In this document: piece after piece, positions 3,389 through 63,160 of the stretch
How the letters are laid out: each line of letters opens with the position of its first letter
Position numbering within the stretch: position 1 is the stretch's first letter
Origin: Candidatus Levybacteria bacterium RIFCSPHIGHO2_02_FULL_40_18
Lineage (GTDB): Bacteria > Patescibacteriota > Microgenomatia > Levybacterales > GWA1-39-11
Assembly: GCA_001782235.1 (NCBI GenBank)
Contig: MFOC01000007.1
Coordinates: 251,909 to 315,908 of the forward strand
DNA: 64,000 nt
Direction of reading: 5' to 3'
Notes under the pieces: model-generated
Seen by the model: the letters and a program-made list of their open reading frames with translations, nothing else
Told to the model about the DNA's origin: nothing
Databases searched by the model: none
Position numbers and translations under genes: made by a program

Positions 3389-3417
3389 AAGAGGTGGTCT
3401 TGGAACCACCTTTTTTA
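3389..3417 (+). terminator. intrinsic terminator-like hairpin in the nusA leader (possible attenuator)
   Basis: AGGTGGT-cttgga-ACCACCT stem-loop followed by TTTTTT, about 20 nt after the predicted transcription start and 40 nt before the nusA ATG. Confidence 0.5.
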
Positions 3418-3455
3418 TACTTAATACATAATACTTAGTACTTAATACTAAAAAT

Positions 3456-4541
3456 ATGGCAGTTGTACAAAGATCGGAATTTGCGTTAGCTTTAAATCAA
3501 ATAGCCTCGGAACGAGGCGTCGATCCTTCTATTGTGCTTGAAACAATGAAGGGCGCAATTTTGGCTGCCTATAGAAAGGATAATGTTGTCCCGGACGAAG
3601 ACCTCGAAAAATATTCGGTTGAATTGAATGAAAACACGGGCGAGACAAAGATTTTAAAAGAAGGAAAGGATGTTACGCCCCCCGGATTTGGAAGAATTGC
3701 AGCCCAAACCGCAAAACAAGTATTGCTTCAGAAAATTCGCGAGCGTGAGAAGGATGCAATAATCGATGAGTATTCAAAGAGAATTGGGACGGTTGTAAAT
3801 GGAATGATCCTGCGATTTATAGGCCCTGCGATTGTTGTTGATATTGGAAAAGCAGAGGCCGTTATTTCGCCGGCTGATAAAATCCTAAACGAACAATACT
3901 TTCTTAATAAAAAGATGTCGGTATATATTAAGGAAATAGATGAGGAGAGGCGGGAGATCATGGTATCAAGATCCGATCCGAGGCTAATTGAAGGGTTACT
4001 CCGACGCGAGGTGCCGGAGGTCAATTCTGGCGCAGTTACCATCAAAAAAGTTGTTCGCGAGCCGGGAAATCGAGCAAAAATTGCAGTTTATTCGGAGCAG
4101 TCAGGTATTGATCCGGTTGGGTCATGCGTTGGGCAAAAAGGTGTTCGTATTCAGGCAGTAATCGATGCTTTGGACGGCCTAGAGAAGATTGATGTGATTC
4201 AGTGGAATCCTGATCCTCTGAAGTTTATAACCAACGCGCTTTCTCCTGCAAAAAATCTTACAGTTGAAATTGATGAAGAAACAAAAACCGCAAGAGTGCG
4301 CGCGCCTCGTGAAGAATTGCCGCTAATCATTGGCCGAGAGGGACAGAATGTTCGTTTGGCATCGAAATTGAGTGAATATAATATTGAAGTTGAAGGAGAC
4401 GAATCTATGACAATACAGGATTCGGGGCAAGCTGAGGAGCCCACTGAGGACAAAAAGACAAAAAACGAAACTCCTAAGACTAGAAAATCCAAGAAGACAA
4501 AAACAAAAGAAGATGATTCCGAACAGGGGAAAAGTGAATAA
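3456..4541 (+). CDS. nusA: transcription termination/antitermination factor NusA
   Basis: 361 aa. N-terminal NusA domain followed by S1/KH-like regions. Conserved position upstream of infB. Confidence 0.85.
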   Translation: MAVVQRSEFALALNQIASERGVDPSIVLETMKGAILAAYRKDNVVPDEDLEKYSVELNENTGETKILKEGKDVTPPGFGRIAAQTAKQVLLQKIREREKDAIIDEYSKRIGTVVNGMILRFIGPAIVVDIGKAEAVISPADKILNEQYFLNKKMSVYIKEIDEERREIMVSRSDPRLIEGLLRREVPEVNSGAVTIKKVVREPGNRAKIAVYSEQSGIDPVGSCVGQKGVRIQAVIDALDGLEKIDVIQWNPDPLKFITNALSPAKNLTVEIDEETKTARVRAPREELPLIIGREGQNVRLASKLSEYNIEVEGDESMTIQDSGQAEEPTEDKKTKNETPKTRKSKKTKTKEDDSEQGKSE

Positions 4542-7691: not shown

Positions 7692-7782
7692 ATAGATCAT
7701 AGATCATAGATTTTAGATCTTAGATCATAGTAAATACAAAAACTAAATCTAAAAAGAGCCACAAAAGTCCCGAAAAAAATTA

Positions 7783-11426: not shown

Positions 11427-11491
11427 AGTTTAGCTTTTGGCGCTTGGCGTTTAGCTAATAGCTAACAGCCAATGGCTAATGGCAAAATATT

Positions 11492-15473: not shown

Positions 15474-16112
15474 GTGTCTTTTATGAGGAAGGTTAGCGAT
15501 ATATTAAGACAAAAAAGAGAAGAAAAGGAGTTGGATCTTGATACTGTTTCTAGCGATACAAAAATAAAGAAAGAGTTTCTTGCCGCAATCGAAGAAGGTA
15601 ATTTTCAAAAGCTTCCCTCGGGAAGTTATGCGTTGGGTTTTGTTAAAAACTACGCGAAATATCTGGGTATTTATGATTCGTCAATTGCGCCTTTGTTTCG
15701 AAGAGAGTATAAATCATCGCGTAATATTCCAATAGTGCCTGAATTTAGAAAAACTCAACATAAATTTGGCAAAAATTTTTTTTTAAATTCCCGCAGTTTT
15801 CTGATCATAGCCGTAATTTTTGTAATACTGGGATACATATTTTTCCAATATAACTCCATAATTTATTCTCCGCGGCTTTCGGTCACAAAACCTCAGGCAG
15901 GACAAGAAATTACGGGAAATGTTGTTGAGGTTGAGGGTAAAACTAACCCGTACGCAACTGTCTTAATTGATGGAGACGAGGCCTATGTAACACTTTCTGG
16001 GGATTTTAAAAAATCAATTTTTGTTTTCTCAGGCAACAAGAAAATAGAAATTGTCGCAAAAAACCGATTCGGAAAAGAGTCCCGCAAGGAGATCAACATC
16101 AAGGTTAAATAA
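15474..16112 (+). CDS. RodZ-like membrane protein with N-terminal XRE-type HTH
   Basis: N-terminal HTH (FLAAIEEGNFQKLPSGSYALGFVKNYAKYLGI) followed by a TM helix and an extracytoplasmic domain. Confidence 0.55.
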   Translation: MSFMRKVSDILRQKREEKELDLDTVSSDTKIKKEFLAAIEEGNFQKLPSGSYALGFVKNYAKYLGIYDSSIAPLFRREYKSSRNIPIVPEFRKTQHKFGKNFFLNSRSFLIIAVIFVILGYIFFQYNSIIYSPRLSVTKPQAGQEITGNVVEVEGKTNPYATVLIDGDEAYVTLSGDFKKSIFVFSGNKKIEIVAKNRFGKESRKEINIKVK

Positions 16113-16223
16113 GTTATAAGTTTTAAGTTGTAAGATGTAAGTAATTTCTTAAATCATAAATCTTACATCTTAGATACTAACTTCATTCTTGCTTTTAAGC
16201 TTATTTCGTGATAATTTAGTAGC

Positions 16224-17954: not shown

Positions 17955-18013
17955 ACAAGAAAACGAAGGCAGCAGAGATTACCGGCAAATAAATTTGAAA
18001 CAGGAAATCGGCT

Positions 18014-18138
18014 TAGAAAATAGTTATTAGAAAACAGAAATTAGTAATGGAAAGTAGAAAATAGAAAACAGTTTTAAGGAGCCAATTTCCAATATCTAAT
18101 TTCCATACCATTTTCCAATTTCTCATAACCAATTTCTT
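18014..18138. repeat. MITE-like inverted-repeat element, copy B, ending 3 nt before the nth ATG
   Basis: Same arms as copies A, C and D. Confidence 0.6.
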
Positions 18139-18140
18139 CA

Positions 18141-18782
18141 ATGGATACTAAGATTAAAGCGCTAAGGATTACTCGTGAATTAAAAAAACTTTTTCCTACC
18201 ACAAAGACTGCATTAGAATATAAAACAGCTTTTCAATTATTGGTTGCGGTTGTTTTATCAGCGCAGACGACTGATAAAAAAGTAAACGAGGTAACTTCAC
18301 GCTTGTTCGCTAAGTTTAAGACAGCGCAGGACTTTTCGAAACTCTCTCAATCAGAACTCGAACCGTATATAAAAAGCATTGGCCTATATCGCGGGAAGGC
18401 AAAAAATATAATTGCGGGGGCAAAAGTTATTTCGGAGAAATACGACGGTGAAATTCCTCGTTCGATGAAAGAAATGACAGCGCTTCCTGGGGTGGGACGC
18501 AAAACCGCAAATGTTGTTTTGGGAATGGTTCATGGTGTGGTCGAAGGAATTGCGGTTGATACACATGTTCGTCGCCTTGCTCAGTTGTTCGGCCTCTCGA
18601 AAAGTTCGAATCCCGACATTATAGAACGCGATCTTATGTCGATTCTCCCAAAAAAAGAATGGCGGGAATTCACATTTCGCATGATCGACTATGGCCGCAA
18701 ATATTGCCCCGCCTCCTGCAAACATATAAACTGCCCACTTCGAAAATATATTACTCGTTACTCGACTCGAGAGCGAGAGTAG
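18141..18782 (+). CDS. nth: endonuclease III (HhH-GPD DNA glycosylase)
   Basis: HhH motif LPGVGRKTANVVL. C-terminal Cys cluster CPASCKHINC has only 3 Cys visible. Confidence 0.8.
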   Translation: MDTKIKALRITRELKKLFPTTKTALEYKTAFQLLVAVVLSAQTTDKKVNEVTSRLFAKFKTAQDFSKLSQSELEPYIKSIGLYRGKAKNIIAGAKVISEKYDGEIPRSMKEMTALPGVGRKTANVVLGMVHGVVEGIAVDTHVRRLAQLFGLSKSSNPDIIERDLMSILPKKEWREFTFRMIDYGRKYCPASCKHINCPLRKYITRYSTRERE

Positions 18783-19584
18783 GTGGGAAGCTAATCCACC
18801 CTCCAGGTGTACTAGCTTGACACCCTTTCTTTTTTCCTGCAAACTCTATATATGGCAACCAATAGGCGCTTGGTGTTTAGCAACGGATACATCTATCATA
18901 TCTTTAATCGCGGCATAGATAGACGCAGCGTCTTCACGGGATTTCGGGAATACTTAAGAGCACAAGAGTTAATAGAGTTTTATAAACATCTCGAAACCCC
19001 CGTAAGATATTCAAAATTTCTGCAACTGTCGAAAAGTCTCAGAGATGATGTGTTAAGAGAGATTAATAAGAGCGAGACACAGGTTGATATTTTAGCCTAT
19101 TGTCTTATGCCAAATCATTTTCATTTTATGCTCCAGCAAAAGGTAGACAAAGGGGTCTCTACTTTTATTGCAAACTTTACGAACGCTTATACAAGGTATT
19201 TTAATACTAAGCATGAGAGGATAGGCCCCATGTTTGAAGGAATATTTAAAGCTGTGTTAGTTGAAAGCGATGAACAATTAATTCATCTCTCTCGGTATAT
19301 ACACCTCAACCCGGTTGTATCAAGTATTATTAACGAATCAGACCTCAACAATTATAAGTGGTCTTCGTATCATGAATATATCGCCCCCTCAAAAAACAGC
19401 ACCGTTTCTAAGAGGGATCTGGTTATGTCAATGTTTGAATCTGCAAAACATTACGAGAAATTTGTTCTTGATCAAATTGAATATGGTAAGAAACTCGAGA
19501 TAATCAAGCATTTAACATTAGAATAGTCGCGTTTAAATAAATGAGGTAAAGAGTATGTGGCAAGCTAATCCACCCTCCAGGTGT
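18783..19584 (+). mobile_element. IS200/IS605-family-like insertion (tnpA only) bounded by 28-bp direct repeats
   Basis: GTGGGAAGCTAATCCACCCTCCAGGTGT at 18783-18810 and GTGGCAAGCTAATCCACCCTCCAGGTGT at 19557-19584 (27/28 identical). Each carries short hairpin potential. The repeats flank a Y1 HUH transposase gene, and the left one starts 1 nt after the nth stop. Confidence 0.6.
18852..19526 (+). CDS. tnpA: Y1 HUH transposase (IS200/IS605 TnpA / RAYT-like)
   Basis: HUH motif YCLMPNHFHFML, catalytic Tyr motif YIHLNPV and N-terminal YHIFNRG. Confidence 0.7.
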   Translation: MATNRRLVFSNGYIYHIFNRGIDRRSVFTGFREYLRAQELIEFYKHLETPVRYSKFLQLSKSLRDDVLREINKSETQVDILAYCLMPNHFHFMLQQKVDKGVSTFIANFTNAYTRYFNTKHERIGPMFEGIFKAVLVESDEQLIHLSRYIHLNPVVSSIINESDLNNYKWSSYHEYIAPSKNSTVSKRDLVMSMFESAKHYEKFVLDQIEYGKKLEIIKHLTLE

Positions 19585-19597
19585 CAGCATATCAGCA

Positions 19598-19693
19598 TTT
19601 GCCTATAGAATGATCGACTACGGCCGAGTCTACTGTCCTGCAACTTGTCGCCACAACGATTGCCCTCTCAGAAAGTTTATAAATAAAAAATAA
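19598..19693 (+). pseudogene. diverged duplicate of the nth 3' end (encodes ..FAYRMIDYGRVYCPATCRHNDCPLRKFINKK*)
   Basis: About 70% nt identity to nth codons at 18690-18782. Lies just right of the element's right repeat. The frame opens only 2 codons before the homologous segment. Confidence 0.55.
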
Positions 19694-24963: not shown

Positions 24964-25050
24964 TAAGTTTGTAAAGTTTATAAAGTTTTTAAGGTTTATA
25001 AAGTTATACTTTAAGAACTTTACGAACCTTATGAACCTTAAGAACTAATT

Positions 25051-30954: not shown

Positions 30955-30996
30955 ATCGGGGCCCCCATTTTGCTTGCCAAAATGGGGAAAAACATT
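30955..30996 (+). promoter_or_regulatory. conserved hairpin element (copy 1) immediately upstream of the rpoC start
   Basis: AATCGGGGCCCCCATTTTG-cttgc-CAAAATGGGGAAAAACATT. 10-bp stem with a G-rich 3' arm 9 nt before the ATG. Confidence 0.55.
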
Positions 30997-33900
30997 ATGG
31001 ACGATAAAAATCTTAGGAGGGACAAAAAATTTGATGCAATAAATATTGCAGACTTTAAAGGTCTTAGAATCTTAGTTGCAGAACCTGAGAATATAAGACA
31101 GTATTCGTATGGCGAGGTCACGAAACCTGAGACGATTAACTATAGAACATATAGACCTGAGAAGGACGGACTTTTTGATGAAAGAATCTTTGGTCCCACT
31201 CGAGACTTTGAATGTTATTGTGGAAAATACAAAAGAATTAGATACAAAGGAATAATTTGTGATAGATGTGGCGTTGAGGTTACATACTCGAGGGTAAGGC
31301 GTGAGCGAATGGGGCATATATCCCTTGCCTCACCGGTTGTCCACATCTGGTTTTCAAAAGGAAGTCCGTCAAAGCTTTCTACCCTCCTTGATATCCCTCA
31401 AAAAGATTTAGAATCGGTAATATATTTTGCCTCTTATTTAGTCATTAAAATGGACGAAGACAAGAGGAAGGAAGCACAAAAAGCTATATCTAAAATTAAA
31501 GAAGAACGAATAAAAAGCTTAAAAGATCAGGCGGCTTCGGAATTAAAAACCCTAGAGAAAGAAGAGCGCGAGCGCGTGAAGGATGTAAAAAAGAGTCTTT
31601 CGAAGGAGCAGAAAGAGCTTGTTCTTGAGGAAACAGATATCGCATACAAGCAGAAAAAGAATCTTCTTGAAAAAAGAGTCGAAACCGAGGTGGCAAGAAC
31701 AGAAGAGATATTTGTGAGGGTAAGTGAAATTATCAAGGGGCTTAAGATTTGGAATGTTCTCTCAGAAGAAGAGTATGTGAGACTTATTGAATATGATATT
31801 CCCCTATTCTTTGAAGTAGAAACAGGGGCCTCGGCTGTGCTCCATGCGATTGAATCAATAGACTTTTCAAAACTTATCGGAGAGTTACGGGAAGAGGTAG
31901 CAAAATCCACAAGCCAAAAGCAATTGAAACTCATGAAGAGACAGCATCTAATTGAGTCTATGAATGCGGCAGGTTTTAAGCCAACCGCTTTAGTTCTTGA
32001 AGTTCTTCCGGTTCTACCGCCTGATCTTCGCCCCATGGTCCAGCTAAACGGCGGCAGATTTGCAACATCGGACCTTAATGATTTGTATCGCCGCGTTATC
32101 AACAGGAATAATAGGCTTAAGCATCTCATATCTTTGGGCGCGCCCGAAATAATACTTCGAAATGAAAAAAGAATGTTGCAGGAGTCTGTTGATTACCTTA
32201 TAGATACCTCCATCAGAACGTCTCAGACCCAGAAACAATTTAAGTCTCTTTCAGATATTCTTCGTGGCAAACAGGGAAGATTTAGAAAGAATCTTCTTGG
32301 AAAGAGAGTTGATTATTCGGGACGTTCTGTCATCATTGTTGGTCCCGAGCTCACACTTAATCAATGTGGTCTTCCAAAAGAAATGGCGCTTGAATTGTTT
32401 AAGCCGTTTGTAATTCGTGAAGTTATCTCGCGCGGTTTAACAACGCCCAATGTAAAAGCAGCAAAAAGATTTATAGAAAGAAGAAGTCCTGAGATTTTCG
32501 ATATTTTAGAGGAAATTACAAAGAATCATCCCGTGCTTTTAAACCGTGCCCCAACTCTTCATAAACTTGGCATGCAGGCATTTTATCCGGTTCTTGTTGA
32601 AGGATCTGCCATAAAGATTCATCCCTGTGTCTGCGCCGGGTACAATGCCGATTTTGACGGAGACCAGATGGCAATTCACGTACCGCTCTCATCTCGCGCA
32701 CAAGAGGAAGCAATTAACCTCATGATGCCGGCTCACAACCTTTTAAAACCTGCGGACGGCGCACCTATCACTCTTCCGAATAAGGAAATGGCGCTTGGAG
32801 CATTCTATCTGACAAGCGTTGACGAGAGACTTAGGCCGCAAGATGGCAATCTTCATATTTTTTCTGATGAAAAGGAAGCTTATCTTGCTTTTTCGCTTAA
32901 GAAAATTTCACTTCGCGGGCCCATAAGAGTAAAGATAAATGGCGAGGTTATTGAAACTACAATAGGAAGAATAATTTTTAATGAGAAATTGCCGCAAGAA
33001 ATGAAATTCATAAATTATGAAGTAAAAGCCTCAACGATTAAAAATCTCGTAACGCAAGCAATGGTGAATCTTACATCTTCTGAAGTCGCAAATCTTATTG
33101 ATAATCTTAAAGAGATCGGTTTTTATGCTGCAACAATTTCTGGAATATCTATTTCTACTTTTGATTTAAAGAGGCTTCTTAACAAAGAAGAATTAATTGC
33201 CGAGGCGGAAGAAAAAATTAAAGAGATAGATGAGGAGTACCAAAACGGTCTTATTACAAATCTTGAGCAGCGAAGGCTTTCTAATAACGTTTGGCTTGAC
33301 ATTACAGATAAAATGGCAAATCTTACCTGGGAGTTGTTTGATAAGAACGATATTGTTAGAATCATTGCGGAATCGGGTGGTGCGAGAGCAGGTAAAGATC
33401 AGATCAAGCAGCTTGCAGCAATGCGTGGATTGATTTATGATCCCTTGGGACGAATCGTTGAGCTTCCGATAAAATCTAATTTCCGAGAAGGACTTTCGAT
33501 CTTTGAATATGTTAATTCTGCCCGCGGTTCAAGAAAGGGACTGACAGATTCGGCACTGAAAACCGCAGACGCCGGATATTTAACCCGCCGCTTGGTAGAC
33601 GTTGCGCATGATGTAATAATTCGGAAAGATAATTGTCAGGTTGATGAAGGGATTGTTGTTCAGAGACGAGATGACGAGTCATACATGACAAGTATGCTGC
33701 TCGGCCGCGTGGCTTTGCGTGATGTGACAAGCAAAAAAGACAAGAAGACAATAGCCAAAAAAGGTTCTGAGATTGACTATGAGGTACTCCATAAAATAAT
33801 TAAAGACGATAGTATAGGCGAAATATCCGTTCGTTCTCCTCTTTATTGTAAACTGCGTTATGGCGTTTGCGCCACATGCTACGGTTGGGATCTGTCATCT

Positions 33901-44490: not shown

Positions 44491-44620
44491 TTAGAAAATA
44501 GTTATTAGAGAATGGAAATTAGTAATGGAAATTTGAAAATAGAAAATAGATAAAAACACCAATTTCTAATATCTAATTTCTATTACCATTTTCTTACTTC
44601 TTACAACCATTTTCTATTTT
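44491..44620. repeat. MITE-like element copy D, ending 6 nt before the next ATG
   Basis: Both arms present. Confidence 0.6.
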
Positions 44621-51061: not shown

Positions 51062-51143
51062 AATTATTGATTATTTATTATAGATTATAGATTATTGTTC
51101 GAACAAATAATAAATAATAAACAATAAATAATATATAAAAAAT

Positions 51144-51431
51144 ATGAGTAGATCACTTAAGAAGGGTCCGTTTATCGATCCAAAATTGATGAAGAAAGTT
51201 CAGGTTCAAAAAGCTGCAGGAGGTACAATTGAGCCAATAAAAACGTGGGCACGGGCCTGCCAGATTCCTCCGGAATTTGTTGGACATACTTTCTTGGTTC
51301 ACAATGGGAAGAATTTTATAACCGTTAAGGTTGTCGAGAATATGGTTGGACATCGTTTAGGTGAATTTTCGCCGACTCGCATTTTCCGTGGACACGGAAG
51401 AGTCGTAGCACGAGAAATAAGCAAAACATAG
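51144..51431 (+). CDS. rpsS: 30S ribosomal protein S19
   Basis: [15 protein letters not shown] start and conserved order. Confidence 0.95.
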
Positions 51432-52616: not shown

Positions 52617-52657
52617 GTTAGCTAATAGCCAAACGCTAAAAGCTAACAGCTGAAATT
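52617..52657 (+). promoter_or_regulatory. conserved leader module upstream of rplP
   Basis: GTTAGCTAATAGCCAAACGCTAAAAGCTAA(C)AGCT, near-identical to 53586-53627. Confidence 0.5.
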
Positions 52658-53562: not shown

Positions 53563-53585
53563 CCCTTGGCTATTGGCTGTTGGCA

Positions 53586-53627
53586 GTTAGCTAATAGCCA
53601 AACGCTAAAAGCTAATAGCTAAATAAT
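53586..53627 (+). promoter_or_regulatory. conserved leader module upstream of rplN (near-identical to 52617-52657)
   Basis: GTTAGCTAATAGCCAAACGCTAAAAGCTAATAGCTAAATAAT. Confidence 0.5.
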
Positions 53628-55286: not shown

Positions 55287-55345
55287 ATAGCTATTGGCCG
55301 TTAGCTATTAGCTAATAGCCAAAAGCCAAAAGCAAATAGGCAAAT

Positions 55346-55729
55346 ATGTATACAATTGGAGATTTTTTAATAAAACTTAAAAACGCAAGCAGAGCCTATA
55401 AGAAGACGGTAGAATATCCATATTCAAACGCTGTTTTTTCAATTGCTAAAATTCTTGAGAAAGAAGGATTTGTCAACAAAGTTTCCGCAAAGGATGAGGA
55501 CAGCAGGAGACTTCTCAAAATTGACCTTAAATATAAAAAAAATGTACCTGCAATCTCAGAGATAAAATTAATTTCAAAACCTTCAGTTCATCACTATGTG
55601 GGCAAGAATAAAATGGCAAGGGTAGAAAGAAATGCGGTAGGTATAGTTACAACAAATAAAGGAGTCATGACAATCCGCGATGCGCAAAAACAGGGCGTTG
55701 GGGGAGAACTAATATGTCAAATTTTTTAA
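55346..55729 (+). CDS. rpsH: 30S ribosomal protein S8
   Basis: Conserved order and core. Confidence 0.9.
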   Translation: MYTIGDFLIKLKNASRAYKKTVEYPYSNAVFSIAKILEKEGFVNKVSAKDEDSRRLLKIDLKYKKNVPAISEIKLISKPSVHHYVGKNKMARVERNAVGIVTTNKGVMTIRDAQKQGVGGELICQIF

Positions 55730-56284: not shown

Positions 56285-56640
56285 GAAAAGAAGAAAAAAT
56301 CAAAAAAATGAGAAAATTGAGAAGGATAAAAAGAGTTCGAAGGAAAATATTGGCAAACAAAAGACTGCCAAGACTTACAGTTTTTCGTTCGAATAAATAC
56401 ATTTATGCCCAGATTATAGATGACAAGTCTGGTAAGTCAATCGTCTTTGCAAGTGAAAAAGAAATAGATACTGATAAAGCAAAAAAAACTGAAAAAGCTG
56501 CGATTCTCGGCCGGATTCTTGCTCAAAAAGCAAAAAAGAAAAAAATAGATAAAGTCATATTTGATAAAGGAAGTTACAAGTATCATGGAAGGATAAAAGC
56601 GCTCGCTGAGGGTGCTAGAGAAGGAGGTCTCGTATTTTAG
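56281..56640 (+). CDS. rplR: 50S ribosomal protein L18
   Basis: Conserved order and core. Confidence 0.9.
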   Translation: MRKEEKIKKMRKLRRIKRVRRKILANKRLPRLTVFRSNKYIYAQIIDDKSGKSIVFASEKEIDTDKAKKTEKAAILGRILAQKAKKKKIDKVIFDKGSYKYHGRIKALAEGAREGGLVF

Positions 56641-56670
56641 ATGTAAGATCTAAGATTTAAGATGTAAGTT

Positions 56671-57129
56671 ATGGAAGATCAAATATTGAATCAAAATCAG
56701 GAAAAGCTTGAGGAAAAAGTTGTTCAGGTAAACCGGGTCTCAAAGAAGACTAAGGGCGGAAATAAAATGAGATTTACCGCTTTGGTAGTTGTTGGCAATA
56801 GAAATGGAAGAGTAGGGGTAGGTCTTGGAAAGTCTGCTGATGTTTCATCGGCGATTATAAAAGCAGTAACATACGCGAAAAAAAGAATGATTGATGTTCC
56901 CATCACAGACGGTACTATACCTTACTCAATAAGGATTAAAAAAGGTGCAGCCGAGGTGCTTCTTAAACCTGCACCGGCAGGTACAGGAATTATTGCAGGA
57001 GGCGCTGTCAGATCTGTTGTTGAGGCGGCTGGAATTAAAAATGTTTCGTCAAAAATATTGGGGTCTGACAATAAAGCAAGCAATGTTTATGCAACTTTTG
57101 AAGCCCTCCAAAAGTTAGCAGCAAAATAA
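56671..57129 (+). CDS. rpsE: 30S ribosomal protein S5
   Basis: Typical S5. Only 45 nt separate it from rplO, so no L30 gene is present. Confidence 0.95.
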   Translation: MEDQILNQNQEKLEEKVVQVNRVSKKTKGGNKMRFTALVVVGNRNGRVGVGLGKSADVSSAIIKAVTYAKKRMIDVPITDGTIPYSIRIKKGAAEVLLKPAPAGTGIIAGGAVRSVVEAAGIKNVSSKILGSDNKASNVYATFEALQKLAAK

Positions 57130-57131
57130 TC

Positions 57132-57174
57132 GGGGCCCCCATTTTGCATCGCCAAAATAGGGAAAACAAAAAAT
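57132..57174 (+). promoter_or_regulatory. conserved hairpin element (copy 2) upstream of rplO
   Basis: AATCGGGGCCCCCATTTTGC-atc-GCCAAAATAGGGAAAACAAAAAAT. Confidence 0.5.
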
Positions 57175-57609
57175 ATGGAATTATCAAATTTACCAAAAAC
57201 AACTAAAAAGAGCTTGCGGCGTGTTGGCCGAGGGGGAGGTTCTGGCCGGGGCAAGACGGCAGGACGTGGAACAAAAGGTCAAAAAGCGAGAGGAAATATA
57301 CCTCTTGCTTTTGAAGGTGGGGCCCTACCCTTAGTTAAAAGATTACCGTTCTTGCGAGGGAAGGGAAGGAATAAAGTATTTAGACCGTGCCCAGTGGCAA
57401 TAAACATTTCAAATCTAAATAAATTGCCGAAAAAGACATCTGTTGATGTAGATACTCTAATTAAATATGGCATAGTGGAGGATGTAGCTCGCAAGTATGG
57501 TGTTAAAATCATTTCAAACGGAGATCTTGCCATCCCTCTTTTAGTAAAGCTTCCGGTATCAAAAGGAGCCAGAAAAAAAATTGAAAAAGCAGGAGGGACA
57601 GTTGAATGA
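57175..57609 (+). CDS. rplO: 50S ribosomal protein L15
   Basis: GRG-rich N-terminus typical of L15. Confidence 0.9.
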
Positions 57610-58892
57610 ACACGATTGTTAAAATTTTTCGAAACAGCATAAGAGATCGCGAAACAAGACGAAAAATTCTGATTGTACTTTTTATTTTTCTAATTTTTAG
57701 ATTTTTTGCTCACGTACCGGTTGCCGGTGTAAACATTGCACAGCTCAAAGCTCTTTTTGCTCAGAATCAATTGTTAGGCTTGCTTGATATTTTTTCGGGC
57801 GGGACCTTATCAAATTTCTCAATCTTAGCACTTGGTCTTGGACCTTATATTTACGCCTCAATAGTTCTTCAGCTTCTGACAATTGTCTATCCTAAACTTG
57901 AGGAGCTTCAGAAAGAAGGAGAATATGGCAGGCAAAAAATAAACCAGTATACAAGATATTTAACAATTCCCCTCGCCGTTATTCAATCATTTGGCATGTA
58001 CGCGTTGCTTAGAAATCAGCAAATAATCACAAATCTTTCCCCTCTTGATATTTTATCTTTTATTTTGACAATGACCGCGGGTACGATATTTGCGATGTGG
58101 CTAGGGGAATTAATATCCGAGCAAGGGATTGGAAACGGTATCTCGCTTTTGATTCTTGCCGGCATTGTTGGGAGGATACCGGTCTTAACTGCCCAAATGA
58201 TCTCAACTCTTAATCAGCAAGACATATTAAATCTTGGAATATTTGCGATCCTTGGCGTATCGGTAGTTGCCGCGGTTGTTTTTGTTAATGAATCAGTAAG
58301 GCGTATACCTATTTATTACGCTAAACGTGTTCGTGGGTCAAGGATGTATGGAGGGCAGTCAACTCACTTGCCCTTGAGAATTAATCAGGCAGGTGTTATA
58401 CCAATAATCTTTGCGGTTTCAATAGTTCTTCTCCCATCCCTTGCCGCAAATTACTTAGTTGGAAGCGCAAGTAAAAACATTGCTTCGATTGGAACATTTC
58501 TCGCCACCTCATTCAATCCTAACGGAATACCCTATAATGCCGTTTATTTTGCCCTTGTTGTGGGTTTTACATACTTCTATACGGCAGTAATCTTCAATCC
58601 GCAAAAAATTTCTGAGGAAATTCAGAAGAACGGAGGCTTTGTTCCGGGTATAAGACCCGGTAAGCCCACGTCATCTTTCCTTAATTACGTAACAACAAGA
58701 ATTACTCTTCCCGGCGCAATTTTCTTGGGCATTATTGCGATTCTTCCAAGCATAGTTCTTGCAATGACCGGCATAACTGCGGTTCTTGTTGGTGGAACAA
58801 GTATTCTAATAGTTGTGTCTGTGGTTATTGAGACGGTTAAAATTCTTGAGGCGCAGCAGGTCCAGAGAAGTTATGAAAGGTTTACTCAATAG
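57606..58892 (+). CDS. secY: preprotein translocase subunit SecY
   Basis: 10-TM protein with SecY signature regions. Confidence 0.9.
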
Positions 58893-58959
58893 TATAGAGT
58901 ATTGCGTATTGAGTATCGAGTATCGAACAAACTGAATACTGTATGTAGAATACTGATTT

Positions 58960-59496: not shown

Positions 59497-59533
59497 CGGG
59501 GTCCCCAAAAGCAGCGCCTTTTGGGGTGTAGAT
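59497..59533 (+). promoter_or_regulatory. hairpin element variant upstream of map
   Basis: CGGGGTCCCCAAAAG-cagcgc-CTTTTGGGGTGTAGAT. Same GGGG/CCCC-capped stem architecture, ending 7 nt before the ATG. Confidence 0.45.
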
Positions 59534-60322
59534 ATGGACACAAAAAAAATTAAGACAATGCGACGTGCTGGTGGTATATTGGGAGAAGTGCTTGAAACTC
59601 TTATTCAATACGTAAAACCGGGCATTTCAGAACTAGAAATAGATACGCTAGCGGAAAAACTAATTCGCGATAACGGCGCCGAACCCGGATTTAAAAAAGT
59701 CCCTTCTTACAAGCACACAATTTGTATATCAACAAATGATGTTGTTGTTCACGGAATTCCTACGAAAAAAGTGCTAAAAGAAGGAGATGTTGTCGGTATT
59801 GATTGCGGGGTTTTTCTTAATGGGTATCATACGGATATGGCAGAAACGCTTCGCGTTTCAACTCAAAACTCAAAACTCAAAACTCAAAACTATGAAAAAA
59901 TTGATAAGTTTCTGGCTGTGGGGAAGAGGGCGTTGTTTGCAGGAATTAATCAGGCAAAACTTGGGAATCGCGTAGGTCATATTTCCAAAGCTATTCAAGA
60001 TGTTGTGGAAGGGAACGGATATTCAGTGGTCCGCACTTTAGTAGGCCACGGCGTGGGCAAGAGTCTTCATGAGAAGCCTGAGATACCGGGCTATTTATCC
60101 GGGGCAATTGATCAAACTCAAGCGCTTTCATCCGGCCAGACGCTTGCAATCGAGGCAATATACAATATGGGAGGCCACGAAGTAGTCTATGATAGAAACG
60201 ATGGCTGGACAATTTCAACTGCTGACAATAGCATCTCAGGCTTGTTCGAGAGGACAATTTTAATAACAGAAAATGGCCCAGAACTATTAACTCGTCTCAA
60301 GGGAGACATGCTTGCTTTGTGA
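59534..60322 (+). CDS. map: methionine aminopeptidase type I
   Basis: M24A metal-binding residues. Contains (ACTCAAA)x4 tandem repeat at 59863-59891. Confidence 0.9.
   Translation: MDTKKIKTMRRAGGILGEVLETLIQYVKPGISELEIDTLAEKLIRDNGAEPGFKKVPSYKHTICISTNDVVVHGIPTKKVLKEGDVVGIDCGVFLNGYHTDMAETLRVSTQNSKLKTQNYEKIDKFLAVGKRALFAGINQAKLGNRVGHISKAIQDVVEGNGYSVVRTLVGHGVGKSLHEKPEIPGYLSGAIDQTQALSSGQTLAIEAIYNMGGHEVVYDRNDGWTISTADNSISGLFERTILITENGPELLTRLKGDMLAL
59863..59891 (+). repeat. heptanucleotide tandem repeat (ACTCAAA x ~4.1) inside the map coding sequence
   Basis: ACTCAAAACTCAAAACTCAAAACTCAAAAC, encoding STQNSKLKTQN. Confidence 0.8.
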
Positions 60323-60331
60323 GGCCAATTT

Positions 60332-60340
60332 TGTTAAAAT
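60332..60340 (+). promoter_or_regulatory. extended -10 TGT-TAAAAT upstream of infA
   Basis: Recurring motif, 14 nt before the ATG. Confidence 0.4.
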
Positions 60341-60354
60341 AACTGGAGCATTTT

Positions 60355-60606
60355 ATGGTGCATGCGGGTGCAATTGAGTTCTCGGGAGTTGTAAAAGAGG
60401 TATTGCCGAACACATTATTTAGGGTCGAGATCGAGGGAGCCACCGGCCCGGAGGGCCTCGGGTCCGGAGGGGAAAAAGTAGTTTTGTGTCATCTGTCGGG
60501 AAAAATGAGAATACATTTTATAAAAATCCTGCCGGGCGACAAAGTAAGAGTTGAAATGACCCCTTACGATCCGGACCGAGGAAGGATTACCTACCGAGAG
60601 AAATAA
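60355..60606 (+). CDS. infA: translation initiation factor IF-1 with ~10-aa loop insertion
   Basis: OB-fold IF-1 ([11 protein letters not shown]...SGKMR...ILPGDKV). A GC-rich in-frame insert encodes [11 protein letters not shown] in the loop between the flanking beta-strands. Confidence 0.85.
60438..60472 (+). repeat. GC-rich in-frame mini-insert (family a) in infA
   Basis: GCCACCGGCCCGGAGGGCCTCGGGTCCGGAGGGG. Confidence 0.65.
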
Positions 60607-60635
60607 TCCCAGCAAAAAGCCATATTGCGACAGAA

Positions 60636-60678
60636 ATCGGGGCCCCCATTTTGCTTCGCCAAAATGGGGAAAAACATT
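60636..60678 (+). promoter_or_regulatory. conserved hairpin element (copy 3) upstream of rpsM
   Basis: AATCGGGGCCCCCATTTTG-cttcgc-CAAAATGGGGAAAAACATT. Confidence 0.55.
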
Positions 60679-61101
60679 ATGAGGGTTGTTGGAGTAAATA
60701 TACCGGAAGAAAAGAGAATTGATATAGCTTTAACCTATGTATATGGCATAGGAAGGTCAAACGTGAAAAAAATACTTGAGAAAGCAACTATTGAACCATC
60801 AAAAAGACTTAAAGATCTTTCCGAGGAAGAACTTTCAAGAATCCAAAAAGTTGTCGAGACTTATAAGATTGAAGGAGATCTTCGAGCAGAATTGGCATCT
60901 AACATAAAAAGACTCAAGGAGATAGGTACATATAGAGGGTTAAGACACTCAAGAAACCTTCCCGTTAGGGGTCAGCGGACCCGCTCAAATGCCAGAACAA
61001 AACGCGGAAAGCGCGTAACAATAGGTGCGATTAAGAAAGAAGCGGCAGCCCGTATGGGGCTAATCGTACCTGAAACATCAGGTAAGGAGGAAAAGAAATA
61101 A
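60679..61101 (+). CDS. rpsM: 30S ribosomal protein S13
   Basis: Start set at MRVVGVNIP. The track start at 60625 lies inside the hairpin element. Confidence 0.9.
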
Positions 61102-61121
61102 AAAAAGGGGTAAAGAAAATT

Positions 61122-63055: not shown

Positions 63056-63160
63056 AATCGCGCAACTTTACCCCGTTAGAAGTTTGAGAAAAAGAATTTT
63101 TTCTTAAAATTCTTTTTCTGAAGCGGGATATTTTTTACACTTCTAACGGGGTTTAATATT

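Follow-up and report, generated by a model that had tools for sequence, protein, structure and literature searches.

Four tagged hairpins in the rpoBC and spc/alpha operons of a Candidatus Levybacteria genome are probably recent copies of a small REP-like palindromic repeat

The 64-kb window analyzed here (the whole stretch of DNA under study) comes from Candidatus Levybacteria, a lineage of the CPR, and carries four short hairpins immediately upstream of rpoC, rplO, map, and rpsM. These hairpins are probably recent insertions of a small, REP-like, dispersed palindromic repeat with a new tag, and not a switch conserved across the four genes. Comparison with relatives shows, at the level of sequence, that, within one Levybacteria lineage, the rpoBC and spc/alpha operons recently received these copies in their intergenic spacers and that copies were gained, lost, or left to decay among close relatives. 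The underlying (C)GGGG-N-CCCC...GGGG unit, hereafter the G4 unit, is multi-copy in many phyla and has a structurally constrained stem.

RESULTS

Anatomy and positions of the four copies

Gene order in the window runs rpoB-rpoC-rpsL-rpsG ... tuf-S10-spc-alpha. Hairpins of the form (C)GGGG-N-CCCC-stem-loop-stem-GGGG occur in its rpoB/rpoC, rpsE/rplO, adk/map, and infA/rpsM spacers (copies 1 to 4, respectively), all on the + strand and far more often than expected by chance, and all four lie where the original prediction had placed the hairpin sequences. Their common anatomy consists of a CGGGG head, one linker base (C or T), and a hairpin with a CCCC/GGGG foot. A covariance model (R1), trained on 42 diverse copies and run over the 64 kb with filters off, returned exactly these four copies, all on the + strand, with E values from 5e-9 to 8e-6. 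The 17-mer formed by head and arm occurs three times in the window against 0.14 expected, and GGGGNCCCC occurs four times against 0.30 expected, a count that was reached in 0 of 100 shuffles.

Copy 1, CGGGGCCCCCATTTTGCTTGCCAAAATGGGG, occupies positions 30957-30987 (+ strand; to 30996 with its tail; 40.7 bits, E 1.2e-8). Its head CGGGG (30957-30961) and linker C are followed by a 10-bp hairpin, CCCCATTTTG/CAAAATGGGG with a 5-nt loop (30963-30987), and by the tail AAAAACATT, which leads directly into the rpoC ATG at 30997. Copy 4 (60638-60669, to 60678 with its tail, + strand; 41.0 bits) differs from copy 1 by a single additional loop base (CTTCGC) and has the same tail, AAAAACATT, up to the rpsM ATG at 60679. 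The best score, 42.2 bits, belongs to copy 3, CGGGGTCCCCAAAAGCAGCGCCTTTTGGGG (59497-59526, to 59533 with its tail, + strand), which reads CGGGG-T-CCCCAAAAG-cagcgc-CTTTTGGGG-TG with the tail TAGAT and leaves a 7-nt gap before the map ATG at 59534. Its stem differs (AAAAG/CTTTT), its head and caps are those of the other copies, and its form is the commonest among the cross-phylum matches listed. Copy 2, CGGGGCCCCCATTTTGCATCGCCAAAATAGGG (57131-57162, to 57174 with its tail, + strand; 30.2 bits), has the head and 5' arm of copy 1 and a G-to-A change in the 3' arm (CAAAATAGGG) that produces a stem mismatch; it is a decaying copy. Its tail, AAAACAAAAAAT, is longer and puts the rplO ATG at 57175 after a gap of 12 nt and not of the 9 to 10 nt originally given.

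Solo CGGGGT and GGGGTAAAG motifs were also observed in the window (63147-63160 and 61107-61121), 9 to 11 nt before the rplQ and rpsK ATGs. They resemble a unit head or tail without a hairpin, like CGGGGTGAAAA in the relative L131 described below, and could be footprints or chance occurrences.

Hairpin folding and covariation

The predicted folds of copies 1, 3, and 4 contain hairpins of 9 to 10 bp, at centroid energies near -14 to -15 kcal/mol, whereas the canonical hairpin is absent from the minimum-energy fold of copy 2. Folding z-scores against dinucleotide shuffles reached no significance for the copies, and the evidence for structure therefore consists of covariation and not of energy. 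In the R1 alignment (42 copies), the 10-bp helix is 99% paired, compared with 77% in shuffles. Compensatory changes, which had been proposed as a check on the stem, are present in the same alignment as 72 double-sided changes against 19.8 in shuffles, and the signal collapses when partner columns are slid. At stem positions that the search pattern left free, pairing stands at 80%, compared with 45% for shuffled partners. As judged from covariation across aligned copies, the hairpin is real.

It had also been suggested that the upstream CGGGG could pair with the CCCC tract in place of the 3' arm. The spacing of 0 to 1 nt permits at most a 3-bp triloop helix, and no alternative helix between head and CCCC was predicted in the folds of the three intact copies, which leaves little of this idea. 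Internal stem mismatches, read on the CGGGG-first strand, comprise seven G.T and one A.C; this excess, in counts that are small, weakly hints that a strand-specific single-stranded form matters.

GC-clamped stems of about -14 kcal/mol would also suit intrinsic terminators, attenuators, or promoters within the operons. We find such readings scarcely credible. They fail because no U-tract is present on either strand (the tails, AAAAACATT, AAAACAAAAAAT, and TGTAGAT, are A-rich) and because a terminator and promoter scan reported none of the four sites.

Orthologous junctions in relatives

Syntenic loci of relatives were collected via SecY and RpoC homologs. In relatives at 79 to 86% SecY identity or 77 to 85% RpoC identity, the corresponding junctions are 1 to 5 nt long, overlap, or consist of unrelated AT-rich spacers. 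The rpoB/rpoC spacer is 45 nt in the window and only TTT, AAAAT, or T in L134, L135, and L136 (RpoC identity of 77 to 85%), which makes copy 1 a 40-nt insertion; the window reads TAA-AAAAT-(40 nt)-ATG and L135 reads TAA-AAAAT-ATG. The rpsE/rplO spacer, likewise 45 nt in the window, measures 1 to 4 nt in L130, L132, and L133 and is an unrelated spacer of 18 nt in L127 and of 97 nt in L128; L129, with overlapping gene calls, shows no element. At adk/map, the 37 nt of the window correspond to 2 to 3 nt or to an overlap in L128, L129, L130, L132, and L133, and at infA/rpsM (72 nt in the window) all six of the relatives that cover the junction have unrelated AT-rich spacers with no copy. In approximately 120 kb of syntenic sequence from nine relatives (L127-L130 and L132-L136), R1 found no copies; in L131 it found two.

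L131 is the closest relative covering the spc/alpha junctions (SecY identity of 91%). Its rpsE/rplO junction retains only the stump GATCGGGGCCCCCAACAAAT, a head without a hairpin. At adk/map it carries a footprint-like CGGGGTGAAAA (CGGGGTG) followed by CGGGGTCCCCACCGAAGGTGGGG, in which head and caps are kept and the stem is different. No copy is present at infA/rpsM in L131, and its map/infA spacer holds TTGGGGTCCCCATTTTGCTTGTCAAAATGGGGAAAAAC, a unit of the rpoC/rpsM subtype; the corresponding junction of the window is empty. A second close relative, represented by L127 (SecY identity to the window of 91%), has a G4 unit on L019, a further contig of its assembly (3462-3493, - strand). This unit lies in frame inside a 775-aa ORF without a Pfam match and is translated as ...EEVERGPQLRSQLGKKDK... 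within a K/E/D-rich linker. The flanks of CPR insertions are A-rich and could mask a target site duplication. L001 to L004 represent one strain (0 to 1 differences in 16.8 kb), and strain comparison was uninformative.

The map/infA spacer also contains an extended -10-like motif (TTTGTTAAAAT or TAGAAT; window 60330-60354) that is conserved in L128, L129, L131, and L133; by its sequence it suggests an internal promoter before infA. The G4 unit of L131 lies directly downstream of this motif.

The original prediction interpreted the elements as a shared cis-regulatory RNA for RNAP beta', L15, S13, and MetAP. In its explicit form, a single trans-acting factor would bind the hairpin and co-regulate the translation or processing of rpoC, rplO, map, and rpsM. 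This reading draws on the near identity of copies 1 and 4, which includes tail and ATG context, on the location of all four copies on the coding strand directly before start codons, and on the sequestration of an SD-like G-tract in the predicted stem. We nevertheless consider it very improbable. A shared cis-regulator is unsupported because the structure is missing from the orthologous intergenic regions, which are empty or unrelated, an outcome that the original prediction had itself named as its refutation. Moreover, the copy before rplO has degenerated in the window and survives as a mere stump in L131, where copies have turned over, and the unit recurs as a multi-copy repeat in unrelated phyla; in other genomes it is also found within an ORF, within MITEs, and ahead of tRNA genes. 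Rfam 15 at gathering thresholds gave no match in the window, and in 18 unit-carrying loci it gave one raiA RNA and one tRNA, neither of them at a unit. Unlike the autoregulatory RNA leaders of ribosomal protein and RNAP operons, the G4 unit is thus neither conserved in position nor a member of an Rfam family.

Position relative to start codons

Of 59 genes, 11 carry GGAG or GAGG no more than 22 nt from the start, usually between -14 and -10, and most genes lack a Shine-Dalgarno (SD) sequence. The 3' G-tract of the hairpin begins at -13 at rpoC and rpsM and at -11 at map, which bears out the original remark that the 3' arm sits where an SD would be expected, and RNA folding predicted the tail and start codon to be unpaired. 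The long N-terminal extensions of the ORFs, suspected from the outset to be artifacts of reading through the element, are just that, because the RpoC, L15, MetAP, and S13 proteins of relatives begin at the same downstream ATGs after unrelated or near-absent spacers.

In polycistronic mRNAs, translational coupling can be mediated by SD-sequestering hairpins, whose stem masks a G-rich tract; each such hairpin is specific to its gene and conserved at its locus. The hairpins described here are similar in that a stem masks a G-rich tract 7 to 13 nt before the downstream start and just past the upstream stop, but they differ in being promiscuous repeat copies that are absent from orthologous loci. 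A further reading is a co-opted initiation module, in which the inserted G-tract would serve as a weak SD, hidden in the hairpin until the ribosome terminating upstream exposes it, and would thereby restore translational coupling over the enlarged spacer. Ancestral junctions of 1 to 5 nt suggest coupled translation, the 5' arm begins 12 nt past the rpoB stop, GGGG stands at -13 or -11 where other genes have GGAG or GAGG, and neither the tail nor the start codon is predicted to pair. The element at infA/rpsM, however, lies 31 nt past the stop, most genes here do without any SD, and at rplO the tract is one G short and the gap 12 nt long. We judge this module unlikely as an explanation of the hairpins; as a secondary role it could coexist with the repeat explanation.

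In the CPR loci examined, 10 of 10 copies read CGGGG-first on the strand of the host gene or of the next downstream gene, and most are located 4 to 13 nt before a start codon. This pattern fits selection for harmless or useful insertions, or could stem from a strand-biased mechanism in genomes where genes follow replication. It could also reflect function instead of mere tolerance.

Other features of the spacers before start codons were noted in the window. Most of these spacers consist of short degenerate tandem arrays, chiefly of heptamers (TAGCTAA, ATACTTA, ATAGATC, TAGAAAA, AGATGTA, and others), including those at 3417-3449, 7692-7730, 11452-11480, 16109-16172, 18013-18068, 24965-25046, 44491-44582, 51063-51144, 52620-52655, 53566-53622, 55288-55346, 56639-56668, and 58891-58923. 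Two arrays are often inverted relative to each other, an SD is usually absent, and the TAGCTAATAGCCAAA family has 21 matches in the window against 2.6 expected. Equivalent spacers in relatives are built from other heptamers, and the arrays recall the STRR heptamer repeats of cyanobacteria. Additionally, rpmD (L30) is absent between rpsE and rplO (57129-57175) and rpmJ (L36) between infA and rpsM (60606-60679), as in all relatives fetched; loss of L30 is known in CPR bacteria.

Distribution across phyla and signs of mobility

A scan of one genome per species with the pattern CGGGGYCCCCAWWWK-N(4-12)-MWWWWGGGG yielded at least 117 loci. The matches listed come from at least eight phyla, with representatives in Bacillota (Oscillospiraceae, Christensenellaceae, Ruminococcus, and others), Nitrospirota, Dependentiae (TM6), Eremiobacterota, Acidobacteriota, Chloroflexota, Alphaproteobacteria, and Patescibacteria including Levyibacteriota, and several genomes among them have at least 4 to 8 loci each. 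Flanks of the cross-phylum loci are lineage-specific, and the unit head and caps are constant; the dominance of the AAAAG arm is partly built in, because the scan pattern itself demanded head and caps. Additional copies in those loci, which the pattern did not force, have very different stems on the same GGGG-N-CCCC...GGGG frame. The (C)GGGG-N tag is invariant across all copies, and units are 30 to 38 nt long.

Several loci carry traces of insertion. In Nitrospirota, a G4 unit lies inside a MITE of approximately 190 to 230 bp with terminal inverted repeats (ACGGTTTCGTAAAAAG...), and a second G4 unit is present in five copies of this MITE (L050, 5339-5450; L033; L059; L075; and L112) and missing from ten (L006, L007, L013, L042, L065, L067, L081, L090, L094, and L102). 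The filled site, GCAACGC-(CCGGGGTCCCCGGTAAGTCGCAGACTTACTGGGGTGG-AACGC)-AGCATATGG, corresponds to a 37-nt insert with a 5-bp duplication (AACGC), the one case of a clear target site duplication. A repeat family in Bacillota has a similar extra unit in one copy, and at Acidobacteriota loci the loops of units hold further, nested units.

Across phyla, with the crude gene calling used, the units showed no consistent orientation toward ORFs and no consistent distance from them. The genes neighboring cross-phylum units are functionally unrelated and include tRNAs, S6, a class I tRNA synthetase, DnaX, a PASTA protein, and a thioredoxin-reductase-like gene. All-against-all BLAST of 2,877 ORFs around the matches listed revealed no recurrent protein beside the units other than generic AraC and ABC-ATPase families and spurious MITE ORFs. 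As a separate observation, tRNA genes in L040 (5660-5792), L108, L024, and L107 are immediately preceded by G4 units; the L040 unit is situated between a TATAAT box and the tRNA and would therefore belong to the tRNA 5' leader.

The canonical form had no matches in IMG/VR, so the unit is not evidently phage-borne, and the map copy, searched by BLAST among the plasmids of PLSDB and the phages of INPHARED, gave partial matches at chance level only. A metagenome scan for the ATTTTG subtype gave five loci, one from the source organism and the rest from unrelated lineages. A limited literature search by sequence strings and topic, which leaves an earlier description possible, did not find the unit described.

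A Y1 protein in the window

The window encodes an HUH-Y1 protein of 224 aa (Y1_Tnp/RAYT-like; 18852-19526, + strand), which raises the question of a REP/RAYT system in which the hairpins are REPs mobilized by this protein. Its Pfam Y1_Tnp score is 40.5 bits (cut-off of 23), its top NCBIfam model is REP-associated tyrosine transposase, and it retains HFHFM (with HFH) and YIHLNP motifs. Homologs of constant length (223 to 225 aa) are widespread in the CPR, as expected of domesticated RAYTs, and those at 55 to 90% identity are common in Levybacteria and Daviesbacteria; the tag and hairpin anatomy of the G4 unit resembles that of REPs (PMC3733652). The NCBIfam score of 46.9, however, falls below the equivalog cut-off of 80, and the gene is enclosed in an IS200-like unit (18782-19600) with perfect 23-nt direct repeats, AAGCTAATCCACCCTCCAGGTGT, at 18788 and 19562 that sit within imperfect palindromes in direct orientation. 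A homolog from another member of the Levybacteria (L141, 67% identical) has the same flanking layout with a covarying hairpin in a different neighborhood. By its sequence, the architecture of the Y1 gene is IS200-like, with flanking hairpins that are not of the G4 type.

The covariance model found no G4 unit beside the Y1 gene of the window or its L141 homolog, and phmmer found no Y1 ORF in approximately 900 kb around the cross-phylum copies among the matches listed. Unlike IS200/IS605 elements, G4 units are solitary, with no transposase between or adjoining them; in the window, paired hairpins in direct orientation flank the Y1 element. Because the Y1 gene has its own, non-G4 palindromes, no adjoining G4 unit, and no counterpart near the cross-phylum copies, we regard its link to the hairpins as improbable.

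DISCUSSION

The repeat explanation is the one we favor for the four hairpins, and REPs are the closest known comparison. The established REP superfamilies are distinguished by a GTAG or a CGTC tag (Di Nocera et al. 2013, PMC3733652). REPs and the G4 unit are alike in being imperfect palindromes of 20 to 40 nt with a short conserved tag at one end (PMC3733652). Both are multi-copy and mostly intergenic, often between co-directional genes and occasionally inside genes; transcription into RNA hairpins is plausible for both, and both are regarded as non-autonomous mobile DNA. In contrast to REPs, the G4 unit has a tag of (C)GGGG plus one linker base that is complementary to the stem foot, its head and caps span at least eight phyla where REPs are species- or genus-specific, no flanking RAYT was found, and the copies of the window lie just upstream of start codons where REPs lie downstream of genes. 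The unit is therefore REP-like but fails two defining features of REPs, the GTAG or CGTC tag and the flanking RAYT.

Two further systems are functional analogs only. Rickettsia palindromic elements (RPEs) are specific to Rickettsia, measure approximately 100 to 150 bp, and can enter both intergenic DNA and, in frame, protein-coding genes. Like the G4 unit, they are small palindromic repeats of reduced genomes that are able to insert in frame; the G4 unit differs in its length of approximately 30 to 40 nt and its cross-phylum distribution. The mobile GC clusters of yeast mitochondria are GC-rich hairpins with an AG target duplication in an organellar, eukaryotic setting (Wu and Hao 2015, PMC4478555). 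They share with the G4 unit the scatter of hairpins in AT-rich intergenic DNA, presence/absence polymorphism, nesting or merging, and a constraint on the stem (PMC4478555). One abundant 32-nt yeast cluster contains CGGGGTCCCCGCCGGGG (PMC4478555), a resemblance that may be one of composition alone, and no homology is claimed.

The G4 unit consists of an unpaired 5' tag, (C)GGGG, one linker base, and a hairpin in which the CCCC/GGGG foot is constant while the rest of the stem and the loop are free to vary. Once inserted, the copies would be co-transcribed with the operons and fold as RNA hairpins. They may persist at tight junctions by supplying a G-tract at SD distance and an unstructured, A-rich tail followed by the ATG, and the insertions are probably tolerated because the 3' G-tract and this tail rebuild the initiation region. 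The hairpin may have a secondary effect on mRNA stability or translation, either as a barrier to 3' exonucleases or by sequestering an SD-like tract until the ribosome finishing the upstream gene opens the stem. Any such effect on expression would be a side effect or a later co-option and not the reason why four genes share the element. Several observations count against the repeat explanation. No mobilizing enzyme emerged from the Y1 gene of the window or from the cross-phylum loci listed, the four known copies in 64 kb all lie in rpo or ribosomal protein operons, the shared orientation and start codon proximity of the CPR copies could reflect function, a clear target site duplication is confined to one case, and the scan pattern itself demanded head and caps.

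A wider proposal is more tentative, and we offer it as a possibility that falls short of being probable. It holds that (C)GGGG-N-CCCC...GGGG represents a third, undescribed superfamily of tagged palindromic mobile repeats, in which head and caps alone are conserved across at least eight phyla, among them the CPR and Dependentiae with their reduced genomes. Such repeats would be copied by trans-acting machinery, land in operon junctions, ORFs, and repeat loops, and leave an SD-like G-tract before essential CPR genes.

For annotation, these hairpins should be masked as repeats and not interpreted as N-terminal extensions or operon leaders. Even highly conserved, tightly coupled junctions of a CPR genome of approximately 1 Mb, such as rpoB/rpoC, rpsE/rplO, and adk/map, appear to accept selfish or neutral hairpins when the insert restores the initiation region. 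Provided that no earlier description of the cross-phylum family exists, it would offer a compact model for tiny palindromes that spread without an obvious transposase, as well as a marker of recent genome dynamics in uncultured lineages.
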